Shown piece by piece: positions 1,451 to 17,962 of a DNA stretch of 64,000 nt. Position 1 is the stretch's first letter. Each line of letters begins with the position of its first letter. The stretch covers positions 13,630 through 77,629 of the forward strand of contig CACKYN010000002.1 in NCBI GenBank assembly GCA_902604355.1, read 5' to 3'. Origin of the DNA: an uncultured Pelagibacteraceae bacterium. GTDB taxonomy: Bacteria; Pseudomonadota; Alphaproteobacteria; Pelagibacterales; Pelagibacteraceae. The position numbers were made by a program, and so were the translations under genes. The notes beneath the pieces were generated by a model. That model searched no databases. It was not told where the DNA came from and saw only the letters and a program-made list of their open reading frames with translations.

Positions 1451-3457
1451 ATGTTTGAAGCATTATTTGCTGCACTTGCTACTATTGTTTCAGGTCCGTC
1501 ATTATTTTTTCTAATTCTCGGTGTTTTAATTGGTTTAGTAGTTGGGGTTATTCCTGGGTTTGGCGGAACTGTGGGATTATCATTGTTACTTCCATTTGTT
1601 TTTGGAATGGAACCAGTTTCTGGAATTGCAATGATGATGGGATTATTATCAGTCGTAGCAACTTCTGATACCTTCCCTGCAGTTTTAATTGGAGTTCCTG
1701 GTTCAGTTTCTGCTCAAGCAACTGTTATGGATGGCTTTCCATTAGCTAAAAAAGGACAAGCAGCAAGAGCATTATCTGCTGCGTTTTTTTCATCTTTATT
1801 TGGTGGACTTTTTGGTGCCGTTCTACTTACGATGGTTATTCAAATTGCAAAACCTATAATCTTAGCTTTTGGAACTGGTGAGATGTTGATGTTAGCAATT
1901 TTTGGAATTTCAGTTGTTGGAACATTAACCGGATCAAGTATTTTCAAAGGATTGGTAGCAGCATGTCTTGGAATGATAATTGGTTGTATAGGTATTTCAC
2001 CAGCAAGTTCTGAGTATAGACTAGATTTTAGCACGATATTAGAGGTTCAAAACCCTGTTGTAATGTATTTAGGAGGAGGAATTCATTTGATGGTGGTTGC
2101 TATTTCTATCTTTGCGTTCCCTGAAATTGTAGAACTTTTGAGGTCAAATAAAGCCGTATCTGAAAAAGCAGAATTGGAAAAATCTGGATGGTTCAAAGGT
2201 TTAAGAGATTTTTTAAGTAACAAGTTTTTAGTATTAAGGTGTTCTTTTATTGGAAGTGTTATAGGTTTAATCCCAGGTATCGGAGGATCTTGTATAGACT
2301 GGATTAGTTATAGTCATGCAAAAACAACTGTAAAAAATAATGAGAATTTTGGAAAAGGTGACATCAGAGGTGTTATTGGGCCTGAGTCTAGCTCCAATTC
2401 CAAAGAGGGTGGAGCACTAATTCCTACTTTATTATTTGGAATTCCTGGATCTGGTGGAACAGCAATTTTGATGGGTGGATTAATATTATTGGGTGTTGAT
2501 CCAGGTATAACGATGGTAGATACCCAACTAGATTTAATTTATACAATAATTTGGTCGCTAGCAGTCGCAAATATATTTGGTGCAATAATTTGTGTAGCAA
2601 TGGCTAAACCAATTTCACAGTTAACAACTATTAATTTCACAATTCTTGCACCATTTTTAATTTCATTAATACTGTTTGCGATTTTTAACTCAACAAGATC
2701 ATGGGGTGATTTAATATTTGCGACATTTATTGGAGTACTTGCTGTTTATATGAAAAGATTTGATTACTCTAGGGTTGCTTTAATGATCGGTTTTGTCTTA
2801 AGCGATAGTATTGAAACATACTTGTATCAGACAATGCAATTTTATACTTTTTCTGAGCTTTTTATAAGACCGATTTTTTTAGTTTTAATTTTGGTTTCAG
2901 CATTTTCAATTTATTCAGGAATTAAAATAATTAATAAAAAAGATAAAATAGCTAATACTAAATCAGATGTACTCAATGCTAAATCTAGACCGCAATGGGT
3001 CTTTTTAATTTTATTGTTATTAATATCTGTTTATACAGTATTTGTAACAGACCATTTACAATATCTAGGTAAAATATTTCCAATTAGTGTTGGTTTGTTT
3101 ATGCTTTTATTCTGTATCATTATAGGAATTCAAATGTTTGTAAGTAAATCTGGCTTAAAGGTATTTCATGATGCAGAAAATTTACTTTTAGGGAATACAG
3201 AAATTAGAAGTCAGTGGTTAACTATTTTCTGGTTTATCTCTCCATTATTTTTATCAGTATTTATAGGATTTTATATGTCTATTGGTTTATTTGTTTTTAT
3301 ATTTTTATCAAAAATTGCAAGAGTAAGTTTTAGATTTAGTTTAATTAGTTCAATTGGTGTATGGATCGCTCTTGCATCAATTTCACATTTTATGATAATG
3401 GATTTTCCTCCAGGAATTTTACAGGGCTATATTGAATTACCTTGGCCAATAAATTAA
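1451..3457 (+). CDS. tctA: Tripartite tricarboxylate transporter permease, TctA with fused C-terminal TctB-like domain
   Basis: TctA motifs (G..PG.G, DGFPLAKKGQA.RAL, GPESSSNSKEGGALIPTL.FGIPGS); extra ~150-aa hydrophobic C-terminus ending FPPGIL. Start moved from 1418 (inside hairpin) to ATG 1451. Confidence 0.85.
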   Translation: MFEALFAALATIVSGPSLFFLILGVLIGLVVGVIPGFGGTVGLSLLLPFVFGMEPVSGIAMMMGLLSVVATSDTFPAVLIGVPGSVSAQATVMDGFPLAKKGQAARALSAAFFSSLFGGLFGAVLLTMVIQIAKPIILAFGTGEMLMLAIFGISVVGTLTGSSIFKGLVAACLGMIIGCIGISPASSEYRLDFSTILEVQNPVVMYLGGGIHLMVVAISIFAFPEIVELLRSNKAVSEKAELEKSGWFKGLRDFLSNKFLVLRCSFIGSVIGLIPGIGGSCIDWISYSHAKTTVKNNENFGKGDIRGVIGPESSSNSKEGGALIPTLLFGIPGSGGTAILMGGLILLGVDPGITMVDTQLDLIYTIIWSLAVANIFGAIICVAMAKPISQLTTINFTILAPFLISLILFAIFNSTRSWGDLIFATFIGVLAVYMKRFDYSRVALMIGFVLSDSIETYLYQTMQFYTFSELFIRPIFLVLILVSAFSIYSGIKIINKKDKIANTKSDVLNAKSRPQWVFLILLLLISVYTVFVTDHLQYLGKIFPISVGLFMLLFCIIIGIQMFVSKSGLKVFHDAENLLLGNTEIRSQWLTIFWFISPLFLSVFIGFYMSIGLFVFIFLSKIARVSFRFSLISSIGVWIALASISHFMIMDFPPGILQGYIELPWPIN

Positions 3458-4536
3458 TTAAGAGTCTTTTTATATTCCTCTATAATCTTAGACCATTGGA
3501 ATTTGTTCACAAATTCTTTGGCATTCTTTCCATACTCTAAATATTTTTTATTTTGTAAAATTGCATTTGTAGATAAATAAACATCATCTAAATTATTCCC
3601 ATCACAAATTAAACCAGTTTTTTGATGATCAATTGCATCTGCTGCCCCTCCATCTTTACCTCCTATAGAAGGTATTCCATATTGAGCTGCCTCAACATAA
3701 GCGATTCCAAATCCTTCAACAGATGTTTTATGTATCACCGAGGGCATTACAAATACATTAGATTTTGCAACTAGGGCATTTTTCAGGTCATTACTTATAT
3801 CTTTAAAGAACATTACTTGTTCTTCTAAATTTAATTCTTTTACAAGGTTTTTAATATTTTCTTCCTCTTCGCCGTAACCTACACAAATATAAACTATATC
3901 AGGGTAAATTTGTTTTAAATTTCTTAAAGCCATAATTATTTTTTCATGGTTTTTTCTTTTATCGAACCTTGAAACAGTAATTAATCTTGGTGTTTTTACT
4001 TTTAACAAACTCTCAACTTTATCCAGAGTTTTTTTATCTAATTCTTTTTCTGGATATACTCCAGGGTTAATTACAATTATTTTATTTTCGTTAACACCAC
4101 ACTTAATTGCTAAATTTTTTGTAAATTGTGAATTTGCAATTACTCTCTCAACATTATTTAAAACATTTAAAACCCTTTTATTTAAATTTGAGCCTACTGG
4201 ATGATTAATTTCTTTACTGTGAATTAGGCAATATTTTTTTTTAGGTGATTTAATTAGTTCTAAACTTTTCCAGTGATCAGCAATTATTCCCTCTATCTTG
4301 TTATCTTTAATAAATTCATTTATTAACTGGGCTTTTCTGTATTTTCTTAAAAGTTTAATCCCTCCAACTCTTTCAATTGAAAAAGACGCTTGTTCATCAA
4401 ATTCTTTGTGACCTTCAATATAATCTGCAAAAACTTTAATCATAAAGTTTTTCGATAATTCTCTTGATAAACCCCACATTAAATTTTGCATTCCACCAAG
4501 CTCTGGTGGAAAAGATCTAGTAACGATTAAATACAT
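3454..4536 (-). CDS. Glycosyltransferase family 4
   Basis: FPPELGG N-terminus, KNHE, EGFGIAYVEA motifs. Confidence 0.9.
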   Translation of the reverse strand: MYLIVTRSFPPELGGMQNLMWGLSRELSKNFMIKVFADYIEGHKEFDEQASFSIERVGGIKLLRKYRKAQLINEFIKDNKIEGIIADHWKSLELIKSPKKKYCLIHSKEINHPVGSNLNKRVLNVLNNVERVIANSQFTKNLAIKCGVNENKIIVINPGVYPEKELDKKTLDKVESLLKVKTPRLITVSRFDKRKNHEKIIMALRNLKQIYPDIVYICVGYGEEEENIKNLVKELNLEEQVMFFKDISNDLKNALVAKSNVFVMPSVIHKTSVEGFGIAYVEAAQYGIPSIGGKDGGAADAIDHQKTGLICDGNNLDDVYLSTNAILQNKKYLEYGKNAKEFVNKFQWSKIIEEYKKTLN

Positions 4537-5090
4537 TAATCATATTTCCATTTAATGCCACAACCAGCACTAGGAATTTGTTCTTTTGGACCTTTACCTG
4601 TTTCAGCTATTTGTTTCATTGCTTGGAATAGATCACTTTCCCCACTTCTAACTGGAATAAGTTTTTTTAATTCTCTTATTCGACCTCTGTATTGAAGTTC
4701 TAAATTTTTATTGTATCCAAAGAAATCAGGAGTACACACAGCATCGTATGCTTTCGCTACTTCTTGGGTTTCATCTACTAAATAAGGAAAACTAAAACTA
4801 TTACTATTTGAGAATTTTATCATATTTTCAAATGAGTCTTCAGGATAATTAACAGCATCATTTGAACAAATTGCAACAGAGTTTATACCTACTTCTTTTA
4901 AAGTATTGCAGTCTTCAACTATATCTTTTGCAACAGCTTTAACATAGGGACAGTGGTTACAAATAAACATTATCAGAGTTCCATTTTCTCCTTTAACATC
5001 ATCAAGCTTGAGAATTTTTTCATCAGTTGATTTTAGTTCAAATGGAATAGCTTTTTTACCAAAATCACATATTGGAGTTTGTATTGGCAT
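4536..5090 (-). CDS. Thioredoxin-like/AhpC-TSA family protein
   Basis: FICNHCPYV, C-terminal PSAGCGIKW. Confidence 0.85.
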   Translation of the reverse strand: MPIQTPICDFGKKAIPFELKSTDEKILKLDDVKGENGTLIMFICNHCPYVKAVAKDIVEDCNTLKEVGINSVAICSNDAVNYPEDSFENMIKFSNSNSFSFPYLVDETQEVAKAYDAVCTPDFFGYNKNLELQYRGRIRELKKLIPVRSGESDLFQAMKQIAETGKGPKEQIPSAGCGIKWKYD

Positions 5091-5110: not shown

Positions 5111-5623
5111 ATGTTTTACGATTTAAAAGATAAAAAACCAAAAAACTCCGGCGAAAATTGGGTAGCACCTAATGCAACTATAATAGGTGATGTTACTCTA
5201 GAGAAAAACACAAGTATTTGGTTTAATGCTGTTTTAAGAGGGGATGTTGAAAACATATTTATTGGTGAAGGGTCAAACGTTCAGGATGGGAGCGTTTTAC
5301 ATACTGATCCAGGATGCCCTTTAAAAGTGGGAAAAGATGTAACTATAGGCCATATGGTTATGCTTCATGGATGCACAATTGGTGATAATAGTTTGATTGG
5401 TATTGGAGCAGTTATTTTAAACAATGCTAAAATTGGAAAAAATTGTATTATTGGAGCTAAAGCTTTAATAACAGAAAATAAAGAAATACCAGATAATTCA
5501 TTAGTAGTTGGATCACCTGGTAAAGTTATAAGAGAAGTTACTAACGAAGAAAAAAAAGGAATAATTGAAAATACTAAGCATTATCAAGATAACTGGAAAA
5601 AATATTCAAAATCAATATTCTAG
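5111..5623 (+). CDS. Gamma-class carbonic anhydrase family (YrdA/CaiE-like)
   Basis: Hexapeptide repeats, LRGD, NVQDG..LH, GH...LHGC. Confidence 0.9.
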   Translation: MFYDLKDKKPKNSGENWVAPNATIIGDVTLEKNTSIWFNAVLRGDVENIFIGEGSNVQDGSVLHTDPGCPLKVGKDVTIGHMVMLHGCTIGDNSLIGIGAVILNNAKIGKNCIIGAKALITENKEIPDNSLVVGSPGKVIREVTNEEKKGIIENTKHYQDNWKKYSKSIF

Positions 5624-5628
5624 TTTAA

Positions 5629-6069
5629 ATGCCAACTTATACAGTAACAAATTCAAATTTTACTTTAACCTCAAAACAGCAAAAAAATTTAGCTGAAGGA
5701 ATTACAAAAGTTCATAATGTTGTAACAGGAGCAAATACTTATTTTGCACAAGTAATATTTAATAAAACAAAAAAAAATAATCATTTCATGGGAGGTAAAA
5801 AAGTAAAAGAGCCTTCAATATTTTTGCTAGGTCAAATTAGAGCTGGCAGACCAAAAAAAACAAAAGATAAATTAATTTCTGATCTTAGAGATATTATAGT
5901 TAAAAATTCTAAATTAGATGAAACTCAAGTATGGGTTTACATTGTTGATTTGCCTCCATCTCAAATGATCGAGTACGGAGAAGTATTACCTGAGTCAGGA
6001 AAAGAAAAAGAATGGTTCTCCAAACTTTCTAAAAAATTAAAAAAAAAATTGTCCAAAATAGGTAATTAG
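5629..6069 (+). CDS. Tautomerase superfamily, cis-3-chloroacrylate dehalogenase (cis-CaaD)/Cg10062 subgroup
   Basis: After Met removal: Pro1, His28, Arg70, Arg73, Tyr103, Glu114 at the cis-CaaD positions. Confidence 0.85.
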   Translation: MPTYTVTNSNFTLTSKQQKNLAEGITKVHNVVTGANTYFAQVIFNKTKKNNHFMGGKKVKEPSIFLLGQIRAGRPKKTKDKLISDLRDIIVKNSKLDETQVWVYIVDLPPSQMIEYGEVLPESGKEKEWFSKLSKKLKKKLSKIGN

Positions 6070-6182
6070 AAAATAAAAAATTTTTTCATTATTTAACAAG
6101 CTAATAAATACAACTAAGGATTGAATACATAATTGTTTTGTTTACAATTCCTTTTAATAGGTTTTTAATTTCATTTATATAA

Positions 6183-7916
6183 ATGGTTAAGAAAATTAAA
6201 AAAACCAAAAAGAAAAAAAAGAAATTAGTCAAAACTTCTAGAAAAATAAAAAGAAAAAAAAAGGTAAAGACTAAAAAAGTTGGGACAAAAAAGTCTGCGA
6301 CTAAGAAACCTTTAAAAAAATCTAGAAGATCTAATAACATCAAATCTAATAAAACAAGAGGAGTGAAAAAAATGAGTGCAGAAGCATTAAAAGTGTCATC
6401 AGCTCTAGACACATCTCATTTAAAGGTAGAATTTCCATTTAAAGCAAAATATGGAAACTACATTAATGGGAAATTTGTAGAGCCAAAATCGGGTAAATAT
6501 TTTGATAATCCAAGTCCAATATCAAATGAAGTTATCTGTTCAGTAGCAAGATCAAATGAAAAAGATGTTGAAGCAGCATTAGATGCAGCTCATGCAGCTT
6601 TTAAAGAATGGGGAAAGACAGACATCACTACAAGATCAAATATAATGATGAAAATAGCTGATGTATTAGAAAAAAATCTAAATTTACTTGCAACAGCTGA
6701 GTGTTTGGATAATGGAAAGCCAATTAGAGAATGTATGGCTGCAGATCTTCCACTAGTAATCGATCACTGGAGATATTTTGCAGGTGTGATTAGAGCTGAA
6801 GAAGGTTCAGTAGCTGAGATTAGTAATTCTCAGTACTCTTACAATATACCAGAACCTTTGGGTGTAGTTGGTCAGATAGTTCCATGGAACTTCCCATTAT
6901 TAATGGCAACATGGAAATTAGCTCCAGCATTAGCTGCAGGTAACTGTTCAGTTTTAAAACCAGCAGAACAAACTCCAGCATCTATCATGGTGATGATGGA
7001 ACTTATCGGTGATTTATTACCTCCAGGGGTTGTAAACATTGTTAGCGGTTTTGGACTAGAAGCAGGTAAACCTTTAGCTTCGTCTAAAAGAGTAGCAAAA
7101 GTTGCTTTTACTGGTGAAACTTCAACTGGAAGATTGATCATGCAGTACGCTGCTCAAAATATAATTCCAATTACATTAGAATTAGGCGGTAAGTCACCTA
7201 ACATATTCTTTGCAGATATTATGGATAAAGATGATGACTTCTTAGATAAGTGTGTTGAAGGTTTTGTAATGTTTAATTTAAACCAGGGTGAAGTATGTAC
7301 TTGTCCAAGTAGAGCATTAGTTCAAGAGTCTATCTATGATAAATTCATGGAAAAGTGTATCGCTAGAACAAAAGCTGTTATCCAAGATAATCCATTGAAA
7401 ATGGAAACGATGATCGGAGCACAAGCTTCGGTTGAGCAAATGGAGAAGATTAAATCTTATCTAGATCTTGGTAAAAAAGAAGGCGCTAAAGTTCTTGCTG
7501 GGGGAGAAGTGGGTAAACTAAATAGTGGATTAGAAAAAGGTAATTATATCCAACCTACTATTTTTGAGACCAATAATAGTTCTCGAATCTCTCAAGAAGA
7601 AATCTTTGGACCTGTAGTATCTGTAATTAAATTTAAAGATGAAGCAGAAGCATTGGAAATTGCTAATGATACTCTTTATGGTTTAGGTGCAGGTGTTTGG
7701 ACTAGAAATGGAAATATTGCATACAGAATGGGTAGGGCAATACAAGCAGGAATAGTATGGACTAATTGTTATCATGCTTATCCAGCTCACTCTCCATTTG
7801 GTGGTTACAAACAATCAGGTGTGGGAAGAGAAACACACAAAATGATGCTTAGCCATTACAGACAAAATAAGAATCTGCATGTTTCTTATGCTGAGAAGAA
7901 ATTAGGCTTCTTTTAA
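6183..7916 (+). CDS. aldB: Aldehyde dehydrogenase (AldB/ExaC type), possibly with a 63-aa Lys-rich N-terminal extension; alternative start at 6372
   Basis: [43 protein letters not shown]; adjacent DUF779; GAGGAG RBS at 6358-6363 before ATG 6372. Confidence 0.9.
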
Positions 7917-7934
7917 TAAATAATAATATATACT

Positions 7935-7959
7935 GGCCCATGATTCTAAATCATGGGCC
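7935..7959. repeat. Perfect 11-bp inverted repeat between aldB and DUF779
   Basis: GGCCCATGATT-CTA-AATCATGGGCC; no U-tract; GGAG follows. Confidence 0.8.
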
Positions 7960-7970
7960 GGAGTTTAAAA

Positions 7971-8321
7971 ATGAAAGTATCTGCAACTAACTCAGCGTTA
8001 AATCTTCTATCTGAACTTCAAGAAAAGTATGGTGAAAAATTGATGTTTCATCAATCTGGCGGTTGCTGCGATGGTAGTGCTCCGATGTGTTTTCCTGAAG
8101 GAGAATTTCCTTTAGGTGATAATGATGTAAAGTTAGGTGAAATTGGTGGAGTGCCTTTTTATATGAATGCTGATCAATACGAAAAGTGGAAACATACTGA
8201 TTTAACAATTGACGCTGTTAAAGGAATAGGTGGCATGTTCTCATTAGATAATGGAACAGGTCGCAGATTTCTGACTAAATCAGAAATCTGCTTAGTAGTC
8301 GATAACGACAAAAAAAATTAA
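7971..8321 (+). CDS. DUF779 family protein
   Basis: MFHQSGGCCDGSAPMCFP, WKHT.LTID..G.G.FSL..G.G.RF; start set to 7971 after GGAG. Confidence 0.9.
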   Translation: MKVSATNSALNLLSELQEKYGEKLMFHQSGGCCDGSAPMCFPEGEFPLGDNDVKLGEIGGVPFYMNADQYEKWKHTDLTIDAVKGIGGMFSLDNGTGRRFLTKSEICLVVDNDKKN

Positions 8322-8328
8322 TCTTTTA

Positions 8329-8655
8329 TTATTGACCTGGAGCTTTGTAAGCGCCTGAAGCGACTTCACTAGCTTTAGTTGTAGCTTTATTAAAATCAAT
8401 AGCTTCTAACAATGTTAGATTTTTTACAGCACCCGAAGCTTCCACTACAAGTTTCACTGCTGCAAAATCTTCAAAACTAGTTAATTCATTTACAACAACA
8501 AAATCATATGAACCTCTAACAATGTCCATGCTATGCATTGTTCCACCCATAGCTTTTGTTAATTGTTCTACTACTGCTTTCCTATCAGTTTTTGGATCCT
8601 TTAAAAAACCTTGAAAAGCTTTTTCGGTGTAGTTTCCCATTATATATGCTTTCAT
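8329..8655 (-). CDS. GYD domain protein
   Basis: RGSYDFVVV; size and N-terminal Y.EKA..G pattern. Confidence 0.75.
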   Translation of the reverse strand: MKAYIMGNYTEKAFQGFLKDPKTDRKAVVEQLTKAMGGTMHSMDIVRGSYDFVVVNELTSFEDFAAVKLVVEASGAVKNLTLLEAIDFNKATTKASEVASGAYKAPGQ

Positions 8656-8738
8656 TATTTCCTCCTATAAAATTAACAATCTAGCATGAGATAATACAAT
8701 TTTTTTTTACAAATTGTCTCAATAAAAATTAAGTAAAT

Positions 8739-9338
8739 CTAAGGTACAAGCCAATTATCTTTATTATTTTCCAAATCAAATCTGGCTCTTCTATGTCCTT
8801 TAGCTGCTAAATATAACCATTCAATAGATTTAATTTTACACTGAATAACAGTAAAATTTTTATAACCTTCTTCGCTTTGCTCTTTTGTATATTCAAAATT
8901 ATCAAGCTCGGGTTTTAAACCAGATGTCGGTTCATCTGAAATACTACCAGGACCATTATCTACTAAATAACATTTCCTGCTTATATGTTGAGTTTTTTCC
9001 CAAGATTTTTTAGAAATGTCATTTTCATGATTTACAATACATTCAACTTTTAATCTGACCTGAATTTTTTCTTCTTTATCATAAAATAACATTGCTGCAT
9101 TAGAATTTTTTTTAAGTATATCAATTTTATCCGATCTGATATCGCTGTGAAATTGAACTAAATTATTTTCCTTATCAGCTTTTCTTAAAACAACAATTCT
9201 ACCATTTATTTCTGAGCCATAACCACACATAAATGTAGGTATTCTAAATTGAGAATTACGGTTTGAAACAGCACCCTCTAACATATGCCAAATCTTTTTT
9301 TTTATTTCACTGAAATCTTCGTAGTATGCTGGTTGCAT
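8739..9338 (-). CDS. Pyridoxamine 5'-phosphate oxidase-related FMN-binding protein
   Basis: RIVVLR, FHSDIRSDK, EWLYL...GHRRA, C-terminal WLVP. Confidence 0.85.
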   Translation of the reverse strand: MQPAYYEDFSEIKKKIWHMLEGAVSNRNSQFRIPTFMCGYGSEINGRIVVLRKADKENNLVQFHSDIRSDKIDILKKNSNAAMLFYDKEEKIQVRLKVECIVNHENDISKKSWEKTQHISRKCYLVDNGPGSISDEPTSGLKPELDNFEYTKEQSEEGYKNFTVIQCKIKSIEWLYLAAKGHRRARFDLENNKDNWLVP

Positions 9339-9343
9339 ACTAT

Positions 9344-10213
9344 CTATTTTCTAAACCTTCTTATTAAACTTGAAGTATCCCATCTATTGCCACCCATTTC
9401 CTGAATCTCTCCATAATATTTATCAACCAGCTCAGTCACAGGTAATAGAGACCCATTATTTTTAGCTTCATCCATGGCAATTTTAAGATCTTTTCTCATC
9501 CAATCTACTGCAAATCCAAATTCAAATTTATCATCAATCATGGTTTTGTATCTATTTTCCATTTGCCATGATTGTGCAGCACCTTTTGAAATTACCTCAA
9601 TAACATCCTCCATTTTTAATCCAGCCTTAATTCCAAAATTGATGGCCTCAGATAAACCTTGAACTAAACCAGCTATACAAATTTGATTAACCATTTTAGC
9701 GAGTTGTCCATTCCCAGGACCACCAAGTAATTTCATTTTTTTGCTGTAGCAATCGATTACATTTTTTGCTTTTTCAAAATCAGCATGGTCACCTCCAATC
9801 ATAACGGTAAGTGCACCATTTTCTGCTCCTGCTTGTCCACCAGATACCGGCGCATCCAGAGATCCAAACCCATTTTTTCTTCCATAATCATGAATTTCTT
9901 TTGCTATAGTTGCTGAAGCAGTAGTATTATCAATATAGACAGACCCTTTTTTTATCGTTTTAAATGCACCACCATCTCCAAATGTAACCTCTCTTAAATC
10001 ATTGTCGTTTCCAACACAGGTAAAAACATATTCAGCATCTTTTGCTGCCTCAGCTGGTGTTTCTGCCATTTTACCTTTGTACTCACTTATCCATTTTTCA
10101 GCTTTAGATTTAGTTCTGTTAAAAACAGTTACATTGTGTCCAGCTTTTGATATATAACCAGCCATTGGGTAACCCATAACCCCAAGACCAATGAAAGTAA
10201 CATTACAAGTCAT
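9344..10213 (-). CDS. NAD(P)-dependent beta-hydroxyacid dehydrogenase (3-hydroxyisobutyrate DH/YihU-like)
   Basis: FIGLGVMGYPMA, LDAPVSGG, GQLAKMVNQ. Confidence 0.9.
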   Translation of the reverse strand: MTCNVTFIGLGVMGYPMAGYISKAGHNVTVFNRTKSKAEKWISEYKGKMAETPAEAAKDAEYVFTCVGNDNDLREVTFGDGGAFKTIKKGSVYIDNTTASATIAKEIHDYGRKNGFGSLDAPVSGGQAGAENGALTVMIGGDHADFEKAKNVIDCYSKKMKLLGGPGNGQLAKMVNQICIAGLVQGLSEAINFGIKAGLKMEDVIEVISKGAAQSWQMENRYKTMIDDKFEFGFAVDWMRKDLKIAMDEAKNNGSLLPVTELVDKYYGEIQEMGGNRWDTSSLIRRFRK

Positions 10214-10224
10214 ATCTTTTATCT

Positions 10225-11430
10225 ATGTTTAAAAGTTTAAGTTTAAAAGTAATTCTGTTTGGTTTTATTTTTACATTTTTTTCTAGTTTTGGACAGAGTT
10301 TTTTTCTAGGACTTTTTAATTCAAGCATTAGAGAGGCTTTATCAATTACACATGGACAATTTGGCTCAATCTATGCGTCTGCTACTTTATTAAGTAGTAT
10401 TGTCTTAGTTTGGATAGGTAAAAAAATTGATGATATTAATATATTAAAATTTTCATCATACGTAATTATATTTTTGTCAGCTTCATGTTTTATTTTTTCT
10501 AAAATTTCCTCAATTATTTTTTTATTTGTAGGAATTTTTTTAATGCGGCTATCAGGTCAAGGCTTATCAAGTCATACTGCTACAACAACAATTTCTCGTT
10601 ATTTTGAGAGAAACAGAGGTAGAGCTTTAAGTACGTGTTGGTTGGGATTATCTTTAGCAGAATTTATCTTGCCAGTTTTGATTGTTTTTTTATTAACATT
10701 TATAGAGTGGAGAGATATCTGGGTTTCAATTTCTATTTTAGTAATTATAGTTTTACCAATTGCATCGTATTTTTTAGTCAAAGAAATTAAACTTGATACA
10801 AGAGAAGATAGCAATAAAGAAGCTATTACCAAAGAAATAAAACAATGGAAAAGAATAGAAGTTTTGAAAGATTTCAGATTTTATATTATTTGTATGACCA
10901 TGTTAGCTATGCCTTGGATAGCGACAGGTGCATTTGTTTATCAATCTTTTATCACTAGCTCAAAAGACTGGGGTCCATATGTGATTGCACAATCCTTTAT
11001 GGTTTACTCAATTTTATCTGTGGTGACTTTATTTATTTCAGGTTTTTTGATTGATAAATTTTCAAGTAGAAAATTGTTAATTTACATGAATATTCCACTA
11101 TTTGCTGCAACTGGAGTTCTGTTCTTTTTTGATAATGAATTTTCATCATTTTTATTCTTTGGTTTGTTAGGTATTACCAACGGACTAGCTAATGTTCTGG
11201 GATCATCTACATGGGCTGAAATTTATGGTGTTAAGTATATTGGATCTATTAAAGCATTAACGACGGCCTTAATGGTATTTGCAACTGCTTTTGGAACAGC
11301 CTTATTTGGTATTCTTATAGATATTAATTTTTCAATTGAGCAAATAGCTATTGTTTCTGGGACATATATCTTGACCTCAATAATTCTACTTTATTCAATT
11401 AAGAGTAAGCTAAATCCTCAATATATATAA
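10225..11430 (+). CDS. MFS transporter
   Basis: About 12 TM segments, GKKIDD motif A-like, FGQSFF. Confidence 0.85.
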   Translation: MFKSLSLKVILFGFIFTFFSSFGQSFFLGLFNSSIREALSITHGQFGSIYASATLLSSIVLVWIGKKIDDINILKFSSYVIIFLSASCFIFSKISSIIFLFVGIFLMRLSGQGLSSHTATTTISRYFERNRGRALSTCWLGLSLAEFILPVLIVFLLTFIEWRDIWVSISILVIIVLPIASYFLVKEIKLDTREDSNKEAITKEIKQWKRIEVLKDFRFYIICMTMLAMPWIATGAFVYQSFITSSKDWGPYVIAQSFMVYSILSVVTLFISGFLIDKFSSRKLLIYMNIPLFAATGVLFFFDNEFSSFLFFGLLGITNGLANVLGSSTWAEIYGVKYIGSIKALTTALMVFATAFGTALFGILIDINFSIEQIAIVSGTYILTSIILLYSIKSKLNPQYI

Positions 11431-11473
11431 AAAACTGCTTGATTTTATATGGCTCACTGTATAGATACTGCGC

Positions 11474-11995
11474 ATGGCAAGAGTAACGGTAGAAGATTGC
11501 ATCGATAAAGTAGATAGTCCCTATGAATTGGTGTTAGTTGCTAAAGAAAGAGCTACTCAATTAAATGCTGGTATAGAACCAACCATTGATAGAGATAACG
11601 ACAAAAATACAGTTATTTCATTAAGAGAAATTGCAGAAGAAAAAATTCAGGTTTCTGATTTAACTGATAGTGCAGTTTATAAACTTAGAAAACATGTTGA
11701 ACAAGTTGATGATACTGCTGAGGATGATGAAGATATAGGTGATGATTTTGAAAATTTATACAAAGGTGAAATTTCAAAAAGTGGTACACCAATTCTGCCT
11801 TCTAAAAGAGCTAGAAAAACTCCAGAAAAAATCCAAGTTACAAAAGAAGATTTAGAAGAATTATCTGAAACAGCTAAAGCTGATGTTGATAGTTCATTTG
11901 ATGAAGAAACTATGAGTGAAGAGGGTGAAGTATCATTGGATGACGTTTCAAATAGTGAGGAGCCAACTCAAGAAGATATCCAAGAAGATCAATAA
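11474..11995 (+). CDS. rpoZ: RNA polymerase omega subunit with long acidic tail
   Basis: [25 protein letters not shown]. Confidence 0.95.
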
Positions 11996-11998
11996 ATT

Positions 11999-13144
11999 TT
12001 AATTTACAAATTCTTTAATTATTTTTTCTCTGTGCTCATCTAAATCAGGGATGTCACCTCTTTTATTAGGATCCTCATATGTAGACATTTTAATGGGGTT
12101 TCCTGCTAGCTGAAAATCTCCTATAACTTTATGATAAGCTTTTACTATCATGTTTCTTGCATCTACTTGAGGATTCTCAACCGCTTCTTTAATATTAAAT
12201 ATTGGACCACAAGGAATTTTATCTTTCTCCATCAAACTTACCCATTCATTAGTAGTTCTATTTGAAAGTTTATTTTCAAGAATTTTTTTTAGTTCATCCA
12301 TATTTTTTGCTCTTGAAGAATTTGAGATAAATTTTTCATCATTAAAAATTTCAGGGACCCCTATAATATTACAAAGCTTTTCAAATAATTTATCATTACC
12401 AGCAGCAATAATTATATAGCTGTCTTTAGTTTTAAATGCTTCAAACGGAGCAATAGATGGGTGTCTAGAACCCATTGGTTGAGGTATTTCATTTTTAGAT
12501 AAATATCTTGCAATTGCATTTTCAAGAATTGCAATTTGACAATCAAGCATCGAAACATCTATGTACATACCCTTACCAGTTTTTTGTCTATCATATAAAG
12601 CTGCATTAATTCCAATTGTTGTAAACAAGCCAGCTGTAATATCACCAATTGAAGTACCAACTCTTGTAGGTTCAGAATTGGGTTGACCCGTTACACTCAT
12701 TAATCCACCCATTCCTTGAACGACCATATCGTAAGCTGGTAATTCTTTTAAAGGACCAGTTTGTCCAAAACCAGATGCTGAAGCATAGATTAATTTTGGA
12801 AACTTTTTGTTTACTTCTTCCCAGCCATAGCCCCATTTTTTTAGAGTTCCTGGTTTAAAATTCTCAACTAAGATATCTGCTTTGGATAAAATTTTATCAA
12901 ATATTTTTTTATCATCTGAATTTTTTAAATTAAGAGCTATACTTTCTTTACCTCTGTTAAGTGACATGAAGTAGGCAGAGTAATCTTCAACAAAAGGTCC
13001 AAATTTTCTTGAGTCATCACCTATTTCTGGAGCCTCAACTTTTATAACTCTTGCACCAAGATCTGATAAAACCATTGTGCAATATGGTCCTACTAGAACC
13101 CTTGTTAAATCAACAACTAATAAGTTTTTTAAAGGTCCATCCAT
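11999..13144 (-). CDS. Class III CoA-transferase (CaiB/BaiF family)
   Basis: LSDLGARVIKVE, NRGKESIALNLK, ENFKPG, PAYD. Confidence 0.92.
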   Translation of the reverse strand: MDGPLKNLLVVDLTRVLVGPYCTMVLSDLGARVIKVEAPEIGDDSRKFGPFVEDYSAYFMSLNRGKESIALNLKNSDDKKIFDKILSKADILVENFKPGTLKKWGYGWEEVNKKFPKLIYASASGFGQTGPLKELPAYDMVVQGMGGLMSVTGQPNSEPTRVGTSIGDITAGLFTTIGINAALYDRQKTGKGMYIDVSMLDCQIAILENAIARYLSKNEIPQPMGSRHPSIAPFEAFKTKDSYIIIAAGNDKLFEKLCNIIGVPEIFNDEKFISNSSRAKNMDELKKILENKLSNRTTNEWVSLMEKDKIPCGPIFNIKEAVENPQVDARNMIVKAYHKVIGDFQLAGNPIKMSTYEDPNKRGDIPDLDEHREKIIKEFVN

Positions 13145-13179
13145 ATTATTTCTAATTATTAATTGTATTTTTTGTTAAC

Positions 13180-13208
13180 TTGACTCTTAACGATATCTTC
13201 ATTTTAAT
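13180..13208 (+). promoter_or_regulatory. Putative sigma70 promoter of the TRAP operon
   Basis: TTGACT(13180-85)-N17-TTTAAT(13203-08); GAGGGAG RBS at 13231. Confidence 0.5.
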
Positions 13209-13243
13209 ACAAGTATCACAAATAACAATAGAGGGAGAATTAA

Positions 13244-14254
13244 ATGTTAAAAAAAATATCTTTATGTTTAACTTCATTTGTTCTTGCGTTCACTTTAATT
13301 GGTTCTGCTTATGCTGTAACTTTAAAAGCAAGTCACCAATGGCCAGGAACTCCAAGAGCTGACGGTTCATTTGACCCAAGACACGAAATGGTTCAAATAA
13401 TTGCAGATGAGGTTAAAAAAGCTAATGTTGGAATAGATATAAGAATTTACCCAGCAAAATCTTTATACAAACCAAAAGAACAGTGGAAGCCAATGACAAC
13501 TGGTCAGTTAGATATTTCTGCTTTTCCTTTAGCATATGCCTCAAAATTCCATCCAGAATTTGATGCAACTTTAATGCCAGGAACTGTAAAAAATCATGAT
13601 CACGCATTAAGATTTAATAAAGGTCCAATGATGACTGAAATTAAAAGAATTATAACTGATGCAGGTGTAGTTGTTTTATCTGATGCTTGGTTAGGTGGTG
13701 GATTTGCCTCTAAGTCTAAATGCATCAAAAATCCAAGCGATGCAAAAGGTCAGGTTATGAGAGCTGCAGGAAAAGCATTTAACCAAATGTTAGAGGCAGC
13801 AGGTGCAGGTATCCAGAGTATGCCTTCATCTGAAATTTATACTGGTCTTCAAACAGGTGTATTAACAGGTGCAAATACTAGCTCAGGAAGTTTTGTAAGT
13901 TATAAAATTTACGAGCAAGTAACTTGTGCAACACCCCCAGGAAAATTTGGATTATGGTTTATGTATGAACCAATTCTAATGTCTAAAAAATCATATGATG
14001 CTTTAAATTCAAAACAACAAAAAGCACTTATGACTGCTGGTAAAGTAGCTGAAAAATATATGACAGCTCAAGTTGAGAATTTGGATAAAAAGTTTGAGGA
14101 TGCATATAAAGCTGCGGGCGTTAAATTAGTCTACATGGACGAGAAAGATCATGCCGCATGGGTAGAGATTGCAAAGAAATCTTCTCATAAAGCTTTTGCT
14201 GAGAAAGTTCCAGGTGGAGATAAACTAATGGAAATGGCTTTGGCAGTTAAATAA
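13244..14254 (+). CDS. dctP: TRAP transporter substrate-binding protein (DctP; MatP-like)
   Basis: Signal peptide, LKASHQWPG, MRAAG, MPSSEIYTGLQTG. Confidence 0.9.
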   Translation: MLKKISLCLTSFVLAFTLIGSAYAVTLKASHQWPGTPRADGSFDPRHEMVQIIADEVKKANVGIDIRIYPAKSLYKPKEQWKPMTTGQLDISAFPLAYASKFHPEFDATLMPGTVKNHDHALRFNKGPMMTEIKRIITDAGVVVLSDAWLGGGFASKSKCIKNPSDAKGQVMRAAGKAFNQMLEAAGAGIQSMPSSEIYTGLQTGVLTGANTSSGSFVSYKIYEQVTCATPPGKFGLWFMYEPILMSKKSYDALNSKQQKALMTAGKVAEKYMTAQVENLDKKFEDAYKAAGVKLVYMDEKDHAAWVEIAKKSSHKAFAEKVPGGDKLMEMALAVK

Positions 14255-14268
14255 AGTAATATATAAAG

Positions 14269-14306
14269 AACCCCTATTTATCAAAAATAAGTAGGGGTTT
14301 TTTTTT
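14269..14306 (+). terminator. Intrinsic terminator-like hairpin between dctP and dctQ
   Basis: AACCCCTATTTAT-CAAAA-ATAAGTAGGGGTT followed by T-tract. Confidence 0.75.
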
Positions 14307-14795
14307 ATGAAAAATAAATATTTAAAATTTTGTAATTTTATAGCTAAAGCTTGTGGAGCGTTTGCAGTTTTAGCCTTACTATTATCAATTTTGGTAATTG
14401 TTGAATTAGTATTTGAGAGATATTTTTTTCAAAGAGCGATTACATGGCAAACTGAGTTGGTAACAATGTTGTTAGTTGCATCTACTTTCATTGGAAGCGC
14501 TTATGTCTTAAGTGAAAAGGCACATGTTAGTATGGAATGGATATATGACTTTTTGTCCTCAAAAAACGTTCTAAGATTAAAAATTTTTACATCATTAGTA
14601 AGTTTATTATTTTTTTTAATTCTATTTTATTTTGGTTTTTTGATGGTTGAAGAGGCATTTATTAAGAATTACTCAACCGGTACAGTTTGGGATCCTCCAT
14701 TATGGATACCTTACTCATCAATGATGATTGGAGCTATTTTAATGATACTTCAGTACATTGCAGAAATTATTAAGTTAACAGACGAGGCAGACTAA
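14307..14795 (+). CDS. dctQ: TRAP small permease
   Basis: 4 TM, RY.F....WQTE, HVS.E. Confidence 0.88.
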   Translation: MKNKYLKFCNFIAKACGAFAVLALLLSILVIVELVFERYFFQRAITWQTELVTMLLVASTFIGSAYVLSEKAHVSMEWIYDFLSSKNVLRLKIFTSLVSLLFFLILFYFGFLMVEEAFIKNYSTGTVWDPPLWIPYSSMMIGAILMILQYIAEIIKLTDEAD

Positions 14796-14798
14796 AAA

Positions 14799-16130
14799 AT
14801 GGACCCATTAATAATAGCTATAATTGTTGCCGTTTTTACTTTGATAGTTCTTTTTTCAGGAATTCCAATTGCATTTGGTTTAAGCTTTGTATCAATAGTG
14901 CTTTTAGTGTCATTTGAAGGTTTTCAAATGCTAGACGTTTTTGCAGAAACGTTTTATGCAGGACTAAATTCATTTGTTTTACTTTCGATACCAATGTTTA
15001 TTTTAATGGGCATGGCTGTTGCCAATTCTCCAGCAGGAAAAGATTTATATACTGGCCTAGATAGGTGGCTTTGGAGACTTCCAGGAGGCTTAGTTATTTC
15101 TAACATAGGTGCTTGTTCTATTTTTGCAGCTTTAAGTGGATCTAGTCCAGCTACATGTGCAGCAATTGGAACAATGGGAATACCTGAGATGAGAAAAAGA
15201 GGTTATTCTGATCAAATTGCTACTGGTACTATCGCTGCAGGAGGAACTCTTGGAGTTCTTATTCCTCCAAGTATAGTTTTAATTGTTTATGGAATTGCAA
15301 CAGGTACATCCATTGGTAGACTGTTCTTATGTGGTTTAGTTCCAGGATTTATGCTGGCAGGTATGTTTGCAATTTGGGCTCTTATTCATAGTTACTTTAT
15401 TGATAAAGATGCTGCAAAAGCCTTAAGGAATAGAACACCTCCTACGTTAAGAGAAAAACTGGAAGTATTACCTAGAGTTCTTCCATTCTTAGCTATTATA
15501 GCAGGTGTTTTGTATGTGTTGTATGGTGGTGTTGCAACTCCATCAGAGGCATCAGGTGTTGGAGCATTCTTGGTTTTTGTATTGATAGCAATTGTTTATA
15601 AAATTTATCAACCGAAAAAAATATGGAATATTGTTAAAGTTTCAATGAAGGAAAGTGTAATGATAATGTTTATCATTGCAGCATCTTATCTTTTTGCATT
15701 TACACTTTCACAACTTTATGTAACTCAATCTTTAGCTCAAAGCATGGTAGAGTTAAGTTCCAATAAATGGATTGTATTTCTCTTAATAAATGTTTTTCTT
15801 TTAATTGCTGGTTTCTTTTTACCTCCTGTTGCAGTAATCGTTATGACTTCTGCTATATTATTACCCGTAATTACCACATTAGGTTTTGATCCATATTGGT
15901 TTGCAATTGTATTTACTATTAATATGGAGATTGGATTAATAACTCCACCTGTTGGATTAAATCTTTATATAATAAAAGGCATTACCCCAGATGTAAGTTT
16001 GTCAGAAATTTTAAAAGGCTCTATACCATTTATGATTATAATGGCATTAGCAATTTTAATTTTGTGTATCTTTCCAGAGATAGTTACATGGCTTCCTGAT
16101 AAAATAATGGGCAAACCTCTTGGATACTAA
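14799..16130 (+). CDS. dctM: TRAP large permease
   Basis: SGSSPAT, GGTLGVLIPPS, EIGLITPPVGLNL. Confidence 0.92.
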   Translation: MDPLIIAIIVAVFTLIVLFSGIPIAFGLSFVSIVLLVSFEGFQMLDVFAETFYAGLNSFVLLSIPMFILMGMAVANSPAGKDLYTGLDRWLWRLPGGLVISNIGACSIFAALSGSSPATCAAIGTMGIPEMRKRGYSDQIATGTIAAGGTLGVLIPPSIVLIVYGIATGTSIGRLFLCGLVPGFMLAGMFAIWALIHSYFIDKDAAKALRNRTPPTLREKLEVLPRVLPFLAIIAGVLYVLYGGVATPSEASGVGAFLVFVLIAIVYKIYQPKKIWNIVKVSMKESVMIMFIIAASYLFAFTLSQLYVTQSLAQSMVELSSNKWIVFLLINVFLLIAGFFLPPVAVIVMTSAILLPVITTLGFDPYWFAIVFTINMEIGLITPPVGLNLYIIKGITPDVSLSEILKGSIPFMIIMALAILILCIFPEIVTWLPDKIMGKPLGY

Positions 16131-17124
16131 AAACAAAATTAATAGAAAAATTTCTGTTGCTCCGATGATGGATTGCACAGACAGACATGATCGTTTTTTC
16201 TTAAGATTGATGAGCAAAAATGTGATGCTTTATACTGAAATGGTTGCTACTAAATCTGCAATACATGGAGATAGAAAAAAAATCTTATCTTATAGTCCTG
16301 AGGAAAAACCAATAGCATTACAGGTTGGTGGATCAAATAAAGAAGAGCTAGCTGAAGTTGCAAAGATTGCAGAAGATATGGGCTATGATGAAATTAATAT
16401 TAATTTAGGTTGTCCTAGTAAAAAGGTTCAAAAAAATAAGTTTGGCGCTTGTTTAATGAAAGAGCCTGATCTTGTAGCCGAATGCATAAGTGCGATGGTT
16501 AATTCATGCAAAATTCCAGTTACTGCAAAAACTAGAATTGGATTTGATAATGTAGAAAGCTTTGAGTATTTAAATAATTTCATTCACAAATTGAGAGATG
16601 TGGGTACAAAAACATTTATTTTACACGCTAGAAAAGCAATATTAACAGGACTTTCTCCTAAGCAAAATTTAAATATTCCAAAGCTTAATTACAATATGGT
16701 TTATGAGATTAAAAAACAAAACCCAGATTTAGAAATTATTATAAATGGAGGAATATCTAAAATAGATGAAATTAATAATCACTTAAATTATTGTGATGGA
16801 GTAATGATTGGAAGATCTATATATCAAAACCCATATTCATTAGTAGAAATTGAAAAGGAAATATTTAATAGGAAAATTAATCCTACCAGAGAGCAGGTAG
16901 CTGAGCAGCTTCTAGATTACGTTGAAAAAGAAGTTAAATTAGGAACAAAAGTTAATCATATAATGAGACATACTGTTGGTTTATACCATGGTCAAATAGG
17001 ATCAAAGGAATGGAAAAGATATCTAAGTGACAATTTAATGGCTCGTGAATCTGATTTTCAAAAAACAAAACATATTATGACAATTGTACAAAATAATGAA
17101 AAAGCTAATCAGACAAATACATAA
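16120..17124 (+). CDS. dusA: tRNA-dihydrouridine(20/20a) synthase
   Basis: SVAPMMDCTDRH, NLGCPS, HARKA.L.GLSPKQN; TTG start overlapping dctM. Confidence 0.9.
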   Translation: MDTKNKINRKISVAPMMDCTDRHDRFFLRLMSKNVMLYTEMVATKSAIHGDRKKILSYSPEEKPIALQVGGSNKEELAEVAKIAEDMGYDEININLGCPSKKVQKNKFGACLMKEPDLVAECISAMVNSCKIPVTAKTRIGFDNVESFEYLNNFIHKLRDVGTKTFILHARKAILTGLSPKQNLNIPKLNYNMVYEIKKQNPDLEIIINGGISKIDEINNHLNYCDGVMIGRSIYQNPYSLVEIEKEIFNRKINPTREQVAEQLLDYVEKEVKLGTKVNHIMRHTVGLYHGQIGSKEWKRYLSDNLMARESDFQKTKHIMTIVQNNEKANQTNT

Positions 17125-17960
17125 TGGATATTTCAAACATAAATGAGATTATAAATTTATTAGTTGTTTTAGCTATAGCTGCTGCAGTTGCTGGTTTTAT
17201 GGCAGGCTTACTCGGTGTTGGTGGAGGTATAATAATGGTTCCAGCATTATATTATGCTTTCTCAGTTTTAGATTTCGATATTGTTACTAGAATGCACCTT
17301 TCCGTTGGAACCTCATTAGCAATTATTGTCCCAACCTCAATCATCTCAACAAAGATACATATGCAACATGATGCTGTAGATTTTAAAATGGTTAAATCCT
17401 TTGGAATATTTATTTTAATAGGAGTAATCGCAGGAACATTTTTAGCTGTTAATTTAAAAACTCCAGCATTAGTTTTATTTTTTTCAATTTTTGCTTTTTT
17501 AGTGGGGGTATTTTTTATTTTTTTAAGAGAGCAGCTTGTTGAAAATCCAAAAAAAATCTCAGATTTAATTAAAAATATCTCTGGAATTGTAATTGGATTT
17601 ATATCCGTCCCACTTGGAATAGGTGGTGGATCATTAATGGTTCCTTTTATGAGAACTTTTGGTTACGACATTAGAAAATCTATTGGAACTGCAGCAGCAG
17701 TCGGTTTTTTGATAGCAGTTACTGGTACCACAACAATGATAATTAGTGGTAAAATTATTAATAATATAAACACACCTTTTAGTCTGGGGTACATAAATTT
17801 ATTAGGTTTTATTGTATTTGTGCCTGTGACGATGTTTATGGCGCGTATAGGGGCTAAAGCAGTATATAAAATTGATAAGCGTTTATTGAGTAAAATCTTT
17901 GGAACTTTTTTAATAATTGTTTCTATTAGATCTTTTTATGAATATTTAAGTATAAACTAG
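17124..17960 (+). CDS. TauE/SafE family (TSUP) membrane exporter
   Basis: GLLGVGGG..MVP, GTSLA, LGIGGG. Confidence 0.88.
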   Translation: MDISNINEIINLLVVLAIAAAVAGFMAGLLGVGGGIIMVPALYYAFSVLDFDIVTRMHLSVGTSLAIIVPTSIISTKIHMQHDAVDFKMVKSFGIFILIGVIAGTFLAVNLKTPALVLFFSIFAFLVGVFFIFLREQLVENPKKISDLIKNISGIVIGFISVPLGIGGGSLMVPFMRTFGYDIRKSIGTAAAVGFLIAVTGTTTMIISGKIINNINTPFSLGYINLLGFIVFVPVTMFMARIGAKAVYKIDKRLLSKIFGTFLIIVSIRSFYEYLSIN

Positions 17961-17962
17961 AT

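Follow-up and report, generated by a model that had tools for sequence, protein, structure and literature searches.

The tautomerase locus and its neighbors

The stretch of DNA analyzed here (64,000 nucleotides, hereafter the window; contig CACKYN010000002.1, positions 13,630 to 77,629, of assembly GCA_902604355.1) derives from an uncultured SAR11 bacterium of the family Pelagibacteraceae, and carries on its plus strand a gene for a 146-residue tautomerase-superfamily enzyme of the Cg10062/cis-CaaD type (P0001; 5629-6069). Downstream of this gene are a spacer of 113 bp (6070-6182), a lysine-rich leader of 63 codons (6183-6371, plus strand) that is in frame with the gene following it, and the gene for an ExaC-type NAD-dependent aldehyde dehydrogenase (ALDH; 6372-7916, plus strand), which encodes a core of 514 residues, or 577 residues if translation starts at 6183. 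A gene for a DUF779 protein (7953-8321, plus strand) comes next, and convergent with it is a gene for a GYD-domain protein (8329-8655, minus strand; PF08734, 66.7 bits). All coordinates are window positions; the ATG at 6183 is referred to as the long-form start of the ALDH and that at 6372 as its internal start. The source assembly comprises 0.97 Mb and is 75% complete, and the G+C content is ~30% throughout the window.

An earlier reading made from the sequence alone (the sequence-only reading) had proposed that the tautomerase and the ALDH beside it mark a dedicated route from a haloacrylate or propiolate to acetate, and that this context could reveal the native role of the enzyme family. 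In our analyses its assignment of the family and its identification of the downstream genes held up, as did an association of these genes at the level of whole genomes; a conserved linkage between neighbors did not.

Sequence and predicted structure of the tautomerase

The translated protein begins MPTYTV, with a proline directly after the initiator methionine. Numbered from this proline, Pro1, His28, Ile69, Arg70, Arg73, Tyr103 and Glu114 stand at exact cis-CaaD numbering. The closest relative of solved structure found by phmmer was Cg10062 (3n4g; E = 1.2e-25), which aligned without gaps (residues 2-144 against 1-143) and has an identical residue opposite each of these seven; cis-CaaD was second (E = 1.3e-22). 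The protein also matched the Pfam family Tautomerase_3 (PF14832) with 47.3 bits, above the cut-off of 25.7, over profile positions 1-134 of 138. These results confirmed what the sequence-only reading had said of the enzyme, namely that it is of the cis-CaaD/Cg10062 type, that it retains the six catalytic residues (Pro1, His28, Arg70, Arg73, Tyr103 and Glu114), and that it resembles Cg10062 in having Ile69. The likeness to Cg10062 extends to Ala34, whereas cis-CaaD has Thr34 and His69 (2flt alignment). At the two positions compared, 34 and 69, the SAR11 protein is thus nearer in sequence to Cg10062 than to cis-CaaD. That these two residues are relevant to specificity is suggested solely by the existence of a structure of a T34A mutant.

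The AlphaFold2 (AF2) model of the protein, built on 44 diverse homologues, had a mean predicted local distance difference test (pLDDT) value of 94.6 and consisted of two beta-alpha-beta units in one chain (strand 3-9, helix 15-33 and strand 41-46, followed by strand 63-71, helix 76-94 and strand 101-108). Superposition of the model gave a template modeling (TM) score of 0.93 with Cg10062 (3n4g) and of ~0.91 with the cis-CaaD structures. From its resemblance to solved trimers the protein would be expected to form a homotrimer, in which Tyr103 is supplied by the adjacent subunit. Among the 44 diverse homologues Tyr3, His28 and Arg70 were invariant, and Pro1, Arg73, Trp101, Tyr103 and Glu114 were at least 90% conserved. 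In 107 distinct SAR11 sequences (63-100% identity) the catalytic hexad, Tyr3, Trp101, Thr32, Gly33, Ala34, Ile69 and Leu119 were all invariant, and position 117 was variable. Judged from its sequence and its relatives, the gene at 5629-6069 is predicted to encode an intact and functional cis-CaaD-subgroup enzyme, and the pattern of conservation clearly indicates purifying selection.

Cg10062 of Corynebacterium glutamicum (3n4g and 7ms0; termed 'CgX' in PMC5818174) shares with the SAR11 protein the six catalytic residues, Ala34 and Ile69, as well as an ungapped match over 143 residues that includes the C-terminal helix. The two differ in that their identity is about a third to two-fifths overall (33% in a structure-based alignment), in the loop at residues 32-38 (TGANTYF in the SAR11 protein versus AHAPKYL in Cg10062), at position 117 (Glu or Ala in SAR11 versus Arg in Cg10062), and in the host, which for the SAR11 protein is a streamlined marine oligotroph. 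With cis-CaaD the SAR11 protein has in common the fold, the hexad at identical numbering and the pair Thr32-Gly33, the differences being those at positions 34 and 69.

Distribution of the tautomerase

In a first draw of genomes the tautomerase was found in 6 of 37 from the SAR11 genus and in 0 of 24 from the sister family. In a larger, even sample of the genus it was present in 62 of 401 genomes (~15%), among them 9 of the 72 that were near-complete. Of 393 near-complete Pseudomonadota genomes sampled, only 11 had a homologue at E <= 1e-10. When the representatives of 1.8 billion clusters were searched exhaustively, 532 of the clusters matched at E <= 0.001, which points to a small family of sporadic occurrence. 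Marine metagenomes commonly contain the SAR11 form, which makes up 1713 clusters at 90% identity, the largest with 441 members. The SAR11 tautomerase is a solitary accessory gene.

Genomic slots of the tautomerase within SAR11 and beyond

The tautomerase occupied at least four different genomic slots within SAR11. The majority arrangement has a gene for a gamma-carbonic-anhydrase-like (gammaCA) protein, a gap of 5-9 bp, the tautomerase, and then convergent genes for a PPOX-like flavoprotein and a dehydrogenase. The minority slots are the tail of a fabA-fabB-fabI operon, a site that follows a FecR-like gene, and a site between an ABC transporter gene and a divergently transcribed gene for an SSF symporter, the last being that of the most divergent clade (63-81% identity). 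The symporter was considered as a candidate importer and was rejected, since it is a core gene that the source genome also has, with no tautomerase beside it.

The slot between the gammaCA and PPOX-like genes (window 5624-8738; loci L118-L122) was found to be a small variable islet across SAR11 genomes, which contained the tautomerase alone, the tautomerase together with ALDH, DUF779 and GYD genes, or unrelated open reading frames of 121-468 aa. In some of these islets, additional insertions of 0.3-4.4 kb flanked the tautomerase to either side. In one genome the usual gammaCA-PPOX slot held a broken tautomerase (G174:C9:24561-24991), with two overlapping fragments and TAA and TAG stops, which is an apparent pseudogene. 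When remnants of the tautomerase were sought in the slot behind the gammaCA gene of tautomerase-less genomes, none were found and other cargo was present; this slot thus accommodates several alternative cargoes, the tautomerase being one.

The gammaCA gene of the window (5111-5623, plus strand; Hexapep PF00132) precedes the tautomerase with a gap of 5 bp, and the two are probably co-transcribed. Its product, a hexapeptide-repeat protein, scored 186 bits against the NCBIfam model for gamma carbonic anhydrase, under the cut-off of 250, with PaaY and CaiE weaker. The gammaCA gene is a core gene, and was found in all five of the tautomerase-less genomes that were checked. The tight spacing between it and the tautomerase is positional, and is not evidence of a shared function.

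Contexts outside SAR11 were taken from genome searches and from contigs encoding homologues. In other Pseudomonadota, none of seven strong homologues had an ALDH gene within 8 kb, and no such gene was found on three metagenomic contigs that carry homologues. Among the contexts of distant homologues no recurrent partner gene was seen; the neighbors there were DGC/phasin genes, MarR/TetR regulators, an SDR-ADH-SDR cluster, an enolase-superfamily gene, and a DUF2252 gene with a phosphatase gene. Two remote homologues (28% identity) lay near unrelated ALDH-family genes and were judged to be members of other subgroups.

The tautomerase-ALDH junction arose once

The ALDH gene directly followed the tautomerase in 8 of the 62 carriers in the even sample. 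The same was true of 20 of the 80 nearest loci of species representatives, which were retrieved from a species-genome collection with an alignment of 11 tautomerase sequences; all 80 were from Pelagibacteraceae/Pelagibacterales, in single-cell or metagenome-assembled genomes, which bears out the assignment of the window to SAR11. When 108 distinct tautomerase genes were placed in a maximum-likelihood tree, the distinct copies with the linkage, 23 in number, all grouped into a single clade, inside a node with a support of 0.97, which indicates that the junction arose only once. In addition, DUF779 was single-copy in the linked genomes, indicating that the module had been moved and not duplicated. 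Synteny across SAR11, through which the sequence-only reading had proposed to check a conserved linkage to aldB, is therefore absent in most carriers, and the claim that the context marks a dedicated route and could disclose the native role was not upheld. The adjacency of the tautomerase and the ALDH represents an accident in the gene order of one lineage, and not a conserved pathway.

The linked clade contains two allele classes of ALDH-DUF779: in genomes G018 and G401 the ALDH is ~79-82% identical to that of the window, and in the others ~95%, showing that the arrangement has survived recombination. The ALDH-DUF779 allele of these two genomes (G018, L007 6663-8604; G401, C4:58448-58798) is divergent although their tautomerases are 90-94% identical, and an internal TAA interrupts the DUF779 gene in G401. 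These features suggest that the allele was replaced through recombination, and possibly that decay has set in.

The ALDH-DUF779-GYD genes form a mobile module

The genes that follow the tautomerase on the same strand are those named by the sequence-only reading. The ALDH matched PF00171 with 520 bits and the DUF779 protein matched PF05610 with 142 bits. Against the NCBIfam ExaC model (NF050026) the ALDH scored 852.2 bits, slightly short of the equivalog cut-off (900 bits), and the next-best model gave 467; in the Protein Data Bank (PDB) its matches included 9fm9 (807 bits) and the solved ExaC structure 9koi (726 bits). No solved structure related to DUF779 was found. The position of the DUF779 gene immediately downstream of the ALDH is shared with acetaldehyde dehydrogenases of the ExaC/AldB/AcoD type that have a DUF779 partner. 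The SAR11 pair differs from these in the score under the cut-off, in the lysine-rich N-terminal leader of 51-76 residues that many of its ALDH copies have, in a hairpin before the DUF779 gene, and in the accompanying GYD gene.

The module was found far more widely than the junction. DUF779 was present in 160 of the 401 genus genomes, and in 20 of 20 further genomes the ALDH, DUF779 and GYD genes occurred at other loci in the same order and orientation as in the window, with the flanking genes of the window not nearby. Of two unlinked modules that were annotated, one has molybdenum-cofactor genes on one side and a formate-dehydrogenase-like operon on the other, and the second adjoins a homocysteine-methyltransferase gene. 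The GYD gene accompanies the ALDH and DUF779 genes at unlinked loci, and all three are absent where the tautomerase abuts the PPOX-like gene. The three genes are a self-contained mobile module that usually resides elsewhere in the genome.

The distance between the tautomerase and the ALDH depends on which start codon is used. The gap of 113 bp given in the sequence-only reading holds for the start at 6183; it does not for the ATG at 6372, which is preceded by AGAGGAG and lies 302 bp past the tautomerase stop. An ATG-started open frame of 51-76 codons forms the leader in 30 of 42 distinct SAR11 ALDH loci, both linked and unlinked, and is missing from the other 12 (e.g., G018). Stops summed over the leaders numbered 0, 118 and 321 in frames 0, 1 and 2, respectively, and shuffled sequences had a mean of 5.3 stops and were stop-free in only 0.15% of cases; as the 30 leader loci were chosen for their openness, the proper test is the proportion of 30/42 against 0.15%. 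The conserved TRGEKK at the end of the leader coincides with the strong ribosome-binding site (AGAGGAG) that precedes the internal ATG, which makes the use of both starts, and so a long and a short isoform of the ALDH, plausible on sequence grounds.

The spacer upstream of the leader (6070-6182) has a promoter-like TTGAAT-N16-TACAAT at 6121-6148, and no terminator-like hairpin was found in it. A motif resembling TACAAyTAnnnnTnGAA occurs ~75-95 bp before the long-form ATG at linked and unlinked loci (window 6100-6182; L098-L117), and the regions upstream of unlinked ALDH genes share further blocks (ACAAGATGTAGTAT, ATAGAC and TAGTTTAAT). This motif and these blocks may represent a control region that belongs to the module itself.

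The ALDH stop is followed, ahead of the DUF779 start, by a conserved G+C-rich hairpin (7935-7961, plus strand) with an 11-bp stem (GGCCCATGATT...AATCATGGGCC), which was present in 24 of the 24 distinct spacers examined. Compensatory changes in the stem (CCCATGA/TCATGGG, CCCGTGA/TCACGGG and CCTGTGA/TCACAGG) accompany this conservation, and the hairpin is probably an intercistronic RNA element. The ATG at 7953 sits within the hairpin, which places the DUF779 start at 7971; a start of ATGAAAGTA is conserved after the hairpin, and relatives of DUF779 align from residue 5-7. The real start of the DUF779 protein is probably, then, the ATG at 7971 (MKVSAT...).

Other genes flanking the locus

Upstream of the gammaCA gene are minus-strand genes for a GT4 glycosyltransferase (3454-4536) and an AhpC/TSA-like redoxin (4536-5090). 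Downstream of the module, also on the minus strand, are core flanking genes for the PPOX-like flavoprotein (8739-9338) and for a HIBADH/tartronate-semialdehyde-reductase-family beta-hydroxyacid dehydrogenase (9344-10213), and in most carriers these two directly follow the tautomerase.

Several genes in the core genome downstream (window 9344-19276) are candidate sinks for C3 acids. They comprise the HIBADH-family dehydrogenase at 9344-10213, an MFS transporter, a CoA-transferase III (11999-13144), a TRAP transporter of the DctPQM type (13244-16130) and a malonyl-CoA decarboxylase (17963-19276), with rpoZ and dusA interspersed among them. If the ALDH oxidized malonate semialdehyde, the CoA-transferase III, TRAP transporter and malonyl-CoA decarboxylase could take the malonate; these three are core genes, 6-13 kb downstream, and are separated from the tautomerase locus by unrelated genes.

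Co-occurrence of the tautomerase and the module in genomes

In the near-complete genomes, DUF779 was present in 9 of the 9 that had the tautomerase versus 28 of the 63 that did not, giving a one-sided hypergeometric estimate of ~0.0015, a statistic that ignores relatedness. Over the whole sample the figures were 44 of 62 carriers versus 116 of 339 non-carriers, and all 18 of the carriers with no DUF779 match were less than 90% complete. The nine near-complete carriers had tautomerases in linked, gammaCA-, FecR- and SSF-type contexts, and DUF779 proteins of three identity classes.

Proposed function

The mechanism that we propose is drawn by analogy with Cg10062 and cis-CaaD, for which the titles of PDB entries record covalent Pro1 intermediates in the hydration, and the hydration and decarboxylation, of acetylenecarboxylate and cis-3-chloroacrylate. 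By this analogy, Arg70, Arg73 and His28 of the SAR11 enzyme would hold the carboxylate of a small C3 or C4 acid that is activated at C3, with 3-haloacrylates, propiolate and allenoates the candidate class of substrates. Glu114 and Tyr103 would activate a water molecule for addition at C3 of the activated unsaturated acid, and Pro1 would serve as a general acid or act via a covalent enamine/iminium. The reaction would yield malonate semialdehyde, or acetaldehyde and CO2 if decarboxylation followed as in Cg10062.

Such products would probably be consumed by enzymes that the cell has anyway, these being a CoA-acylating (methyl)malonate-semialdehyde dehydrogenase and the ExaC-type ALDH, wherever in the genome the latter is located. 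The source genome encodes an MmsA-type enzyme on contig C30 (TIGR01722, 701 bits versus a cut-off of 448) in addition to the ExaC-type enzyme, and either product therefore has a ready sink. In the 1,3-dichloropropene pathway cis-CaaD acts together with a malonate semialdehyde decarboxylase (MSAD). No match to a gene of this type (PF14552) was found in the source genome, which is 75% complete.

The reading that we favor, and to which as a whole we assign a probability of roughly 0.55, is that the tautomerase is an accessory enzyme of the cis-CaaD subgroup, and that its adjacency to the ALDH reflects a single relocation of the module and no dedicated operon. The ALDH-DUF779-GYD genes would have moved beside the tautomerase once, in one sub-lineage. 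Several observations weigh against this reading. The counts of 9/9 versus 28/63 fit an obligatory metabolic coupling as well as they fit shared ancestry. The linked order has also been kept in a clade that comprises 23 distinct sequences and two classes of ALDH allele, and its persistence despite the differing alleles indicates that the linkage is at least tolerated and could be favored. Moreover, as the spacer has no terminator-like hairpin, transcription may read through from the tautomerase into the ALDH.

These same observations are the strength of the explanation closest to the sequence-only reading, in which the tautomerase, the ExaC-type ALDH and DUF779 constitute a coupled, cofactor-free route from a marine halo- or acetylenic C3 acid via acetaldehyde to acetate, with the adjacency under selection. 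Such a route would suit Ala34 and Ile69, which match those of Cg10062, the homologue that yields acetaldehyde, as well as the excess of the module in tautomerase carriers (near-complete and overall), the occurrence of module-bearing carriers in several of the tautomerase contexts and with DUF779 proteins of three identity classes, the retention of the junction across allele classes, and the lack of a terminator-like site in the spacer. The literature is also in keeping with it: haloacrylates occur naturally in the sea, a passage of PMC10919026 citing a red alga as a producer of haloacrylic acids, and a passage of PMC12599314, citing Moore et al. 2020, reports that Pelagibacter metabolizes acetaldehyde. 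We nevertheless consider the coupled route doubtful. The junction has a single origin, 54 of the 62 even-sample carriers lack the linkage, and at least 116 genomes have the module but no tautomerase. The gap of 113-302 bp, with its promoter-like site, compares poorly with the 5-9 bp between the gammaCA gene and the tautomerase, the homologues outside SAR11 (the seven strong ones in other Pseudomonadota, within 8 kb, and those on the three metagenomic contigs) have no ALDH gene beside them, and the co-occurrence counts that favor a coupling take no account of relatedness. The residual association of the tautomerase with the module at the genome level keeps metabolic coupling as a minority reading.

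Coupling could also operate with no regard to gene order, if carriers scavenge natural C3 acids of the surface ocean (algal bromo- and chloroacrylates, acetylenic or allenic acids) and need the ALDH-DUF779 module somewhere in the same genome. This would give such acids a cofactor-free entry to central metabolism, as malonate semialdehyde via MmsA or as acetaldehyde via the ExaC-type ALDH, and, if true, would account for the presence of the module in every near-complete carrier. We regard this scavenging role as unlikely. A further explanation retains the cis-CaaD scaffold and assigns it a different native reaction in SAR11, such as an enol-keto tautomerization or the hydration of another unsaturated acid, to which haloacrylates and propiolate are irrelevant and which would yield neither malonate semialdehyde nor acetaldehyde. 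It is consistent with the description of Cg10062 as a cis-CaaD that is poor and non-specific and whose physiological function is not known, within a mostly uncharacterized subgroup (PMC5818174), with the absence of a conserved partner gene from all of the contexts examined, and with the lack of a PF14552 match in the 75%-complete genome. The Joint Genome Institute (JGI) labels two near-identical proteins as tautomerases of the PptA type (phenylpyruvate tautomerase); however, this is an automatic name at the superfamily level and not a tested function. A different reaction seems improbable to us, in that the full hydratase/dehalogenase hexad, including Glu114/Tyr103 and the Arg70/Arg73 clamp, is invariant in the 107 SAR11 sequences, a conservation that would be unexpected if Pro1-based tautomerization alone mattered.

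Significance

The SAR11 tautomerase is a new member, in SAR11, of a family that was itself already known. The founder enzyme of that family has as its substrate a degradation product of a synthetic nematicide, and since the discovery of the Cg10062/cis-CaaD subgroup no native substrate is known to have been identified for it. As the adjacency of the dehydrogenase was a one-off rearrangement, gene neighborhood will not identify this substrate; the genome-level association with ALDH-DUF779 is the single lead that merits careful phylogenetic analysis, and the SAR11 tautomerase offers a clean, small target for enzymology. SAR11 are reputed to be the most abundant marine bacteria, and the retention of all the catalytic residues by an enzyme found in about one in seven genomes of the SAR11 genus argues for a natural substrate in seawater. 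If the scavenging of surface-ocean C3 acids were true, it would be the first natural, non-xenobiotic role for the cis-CaaD/Cg10062 family.

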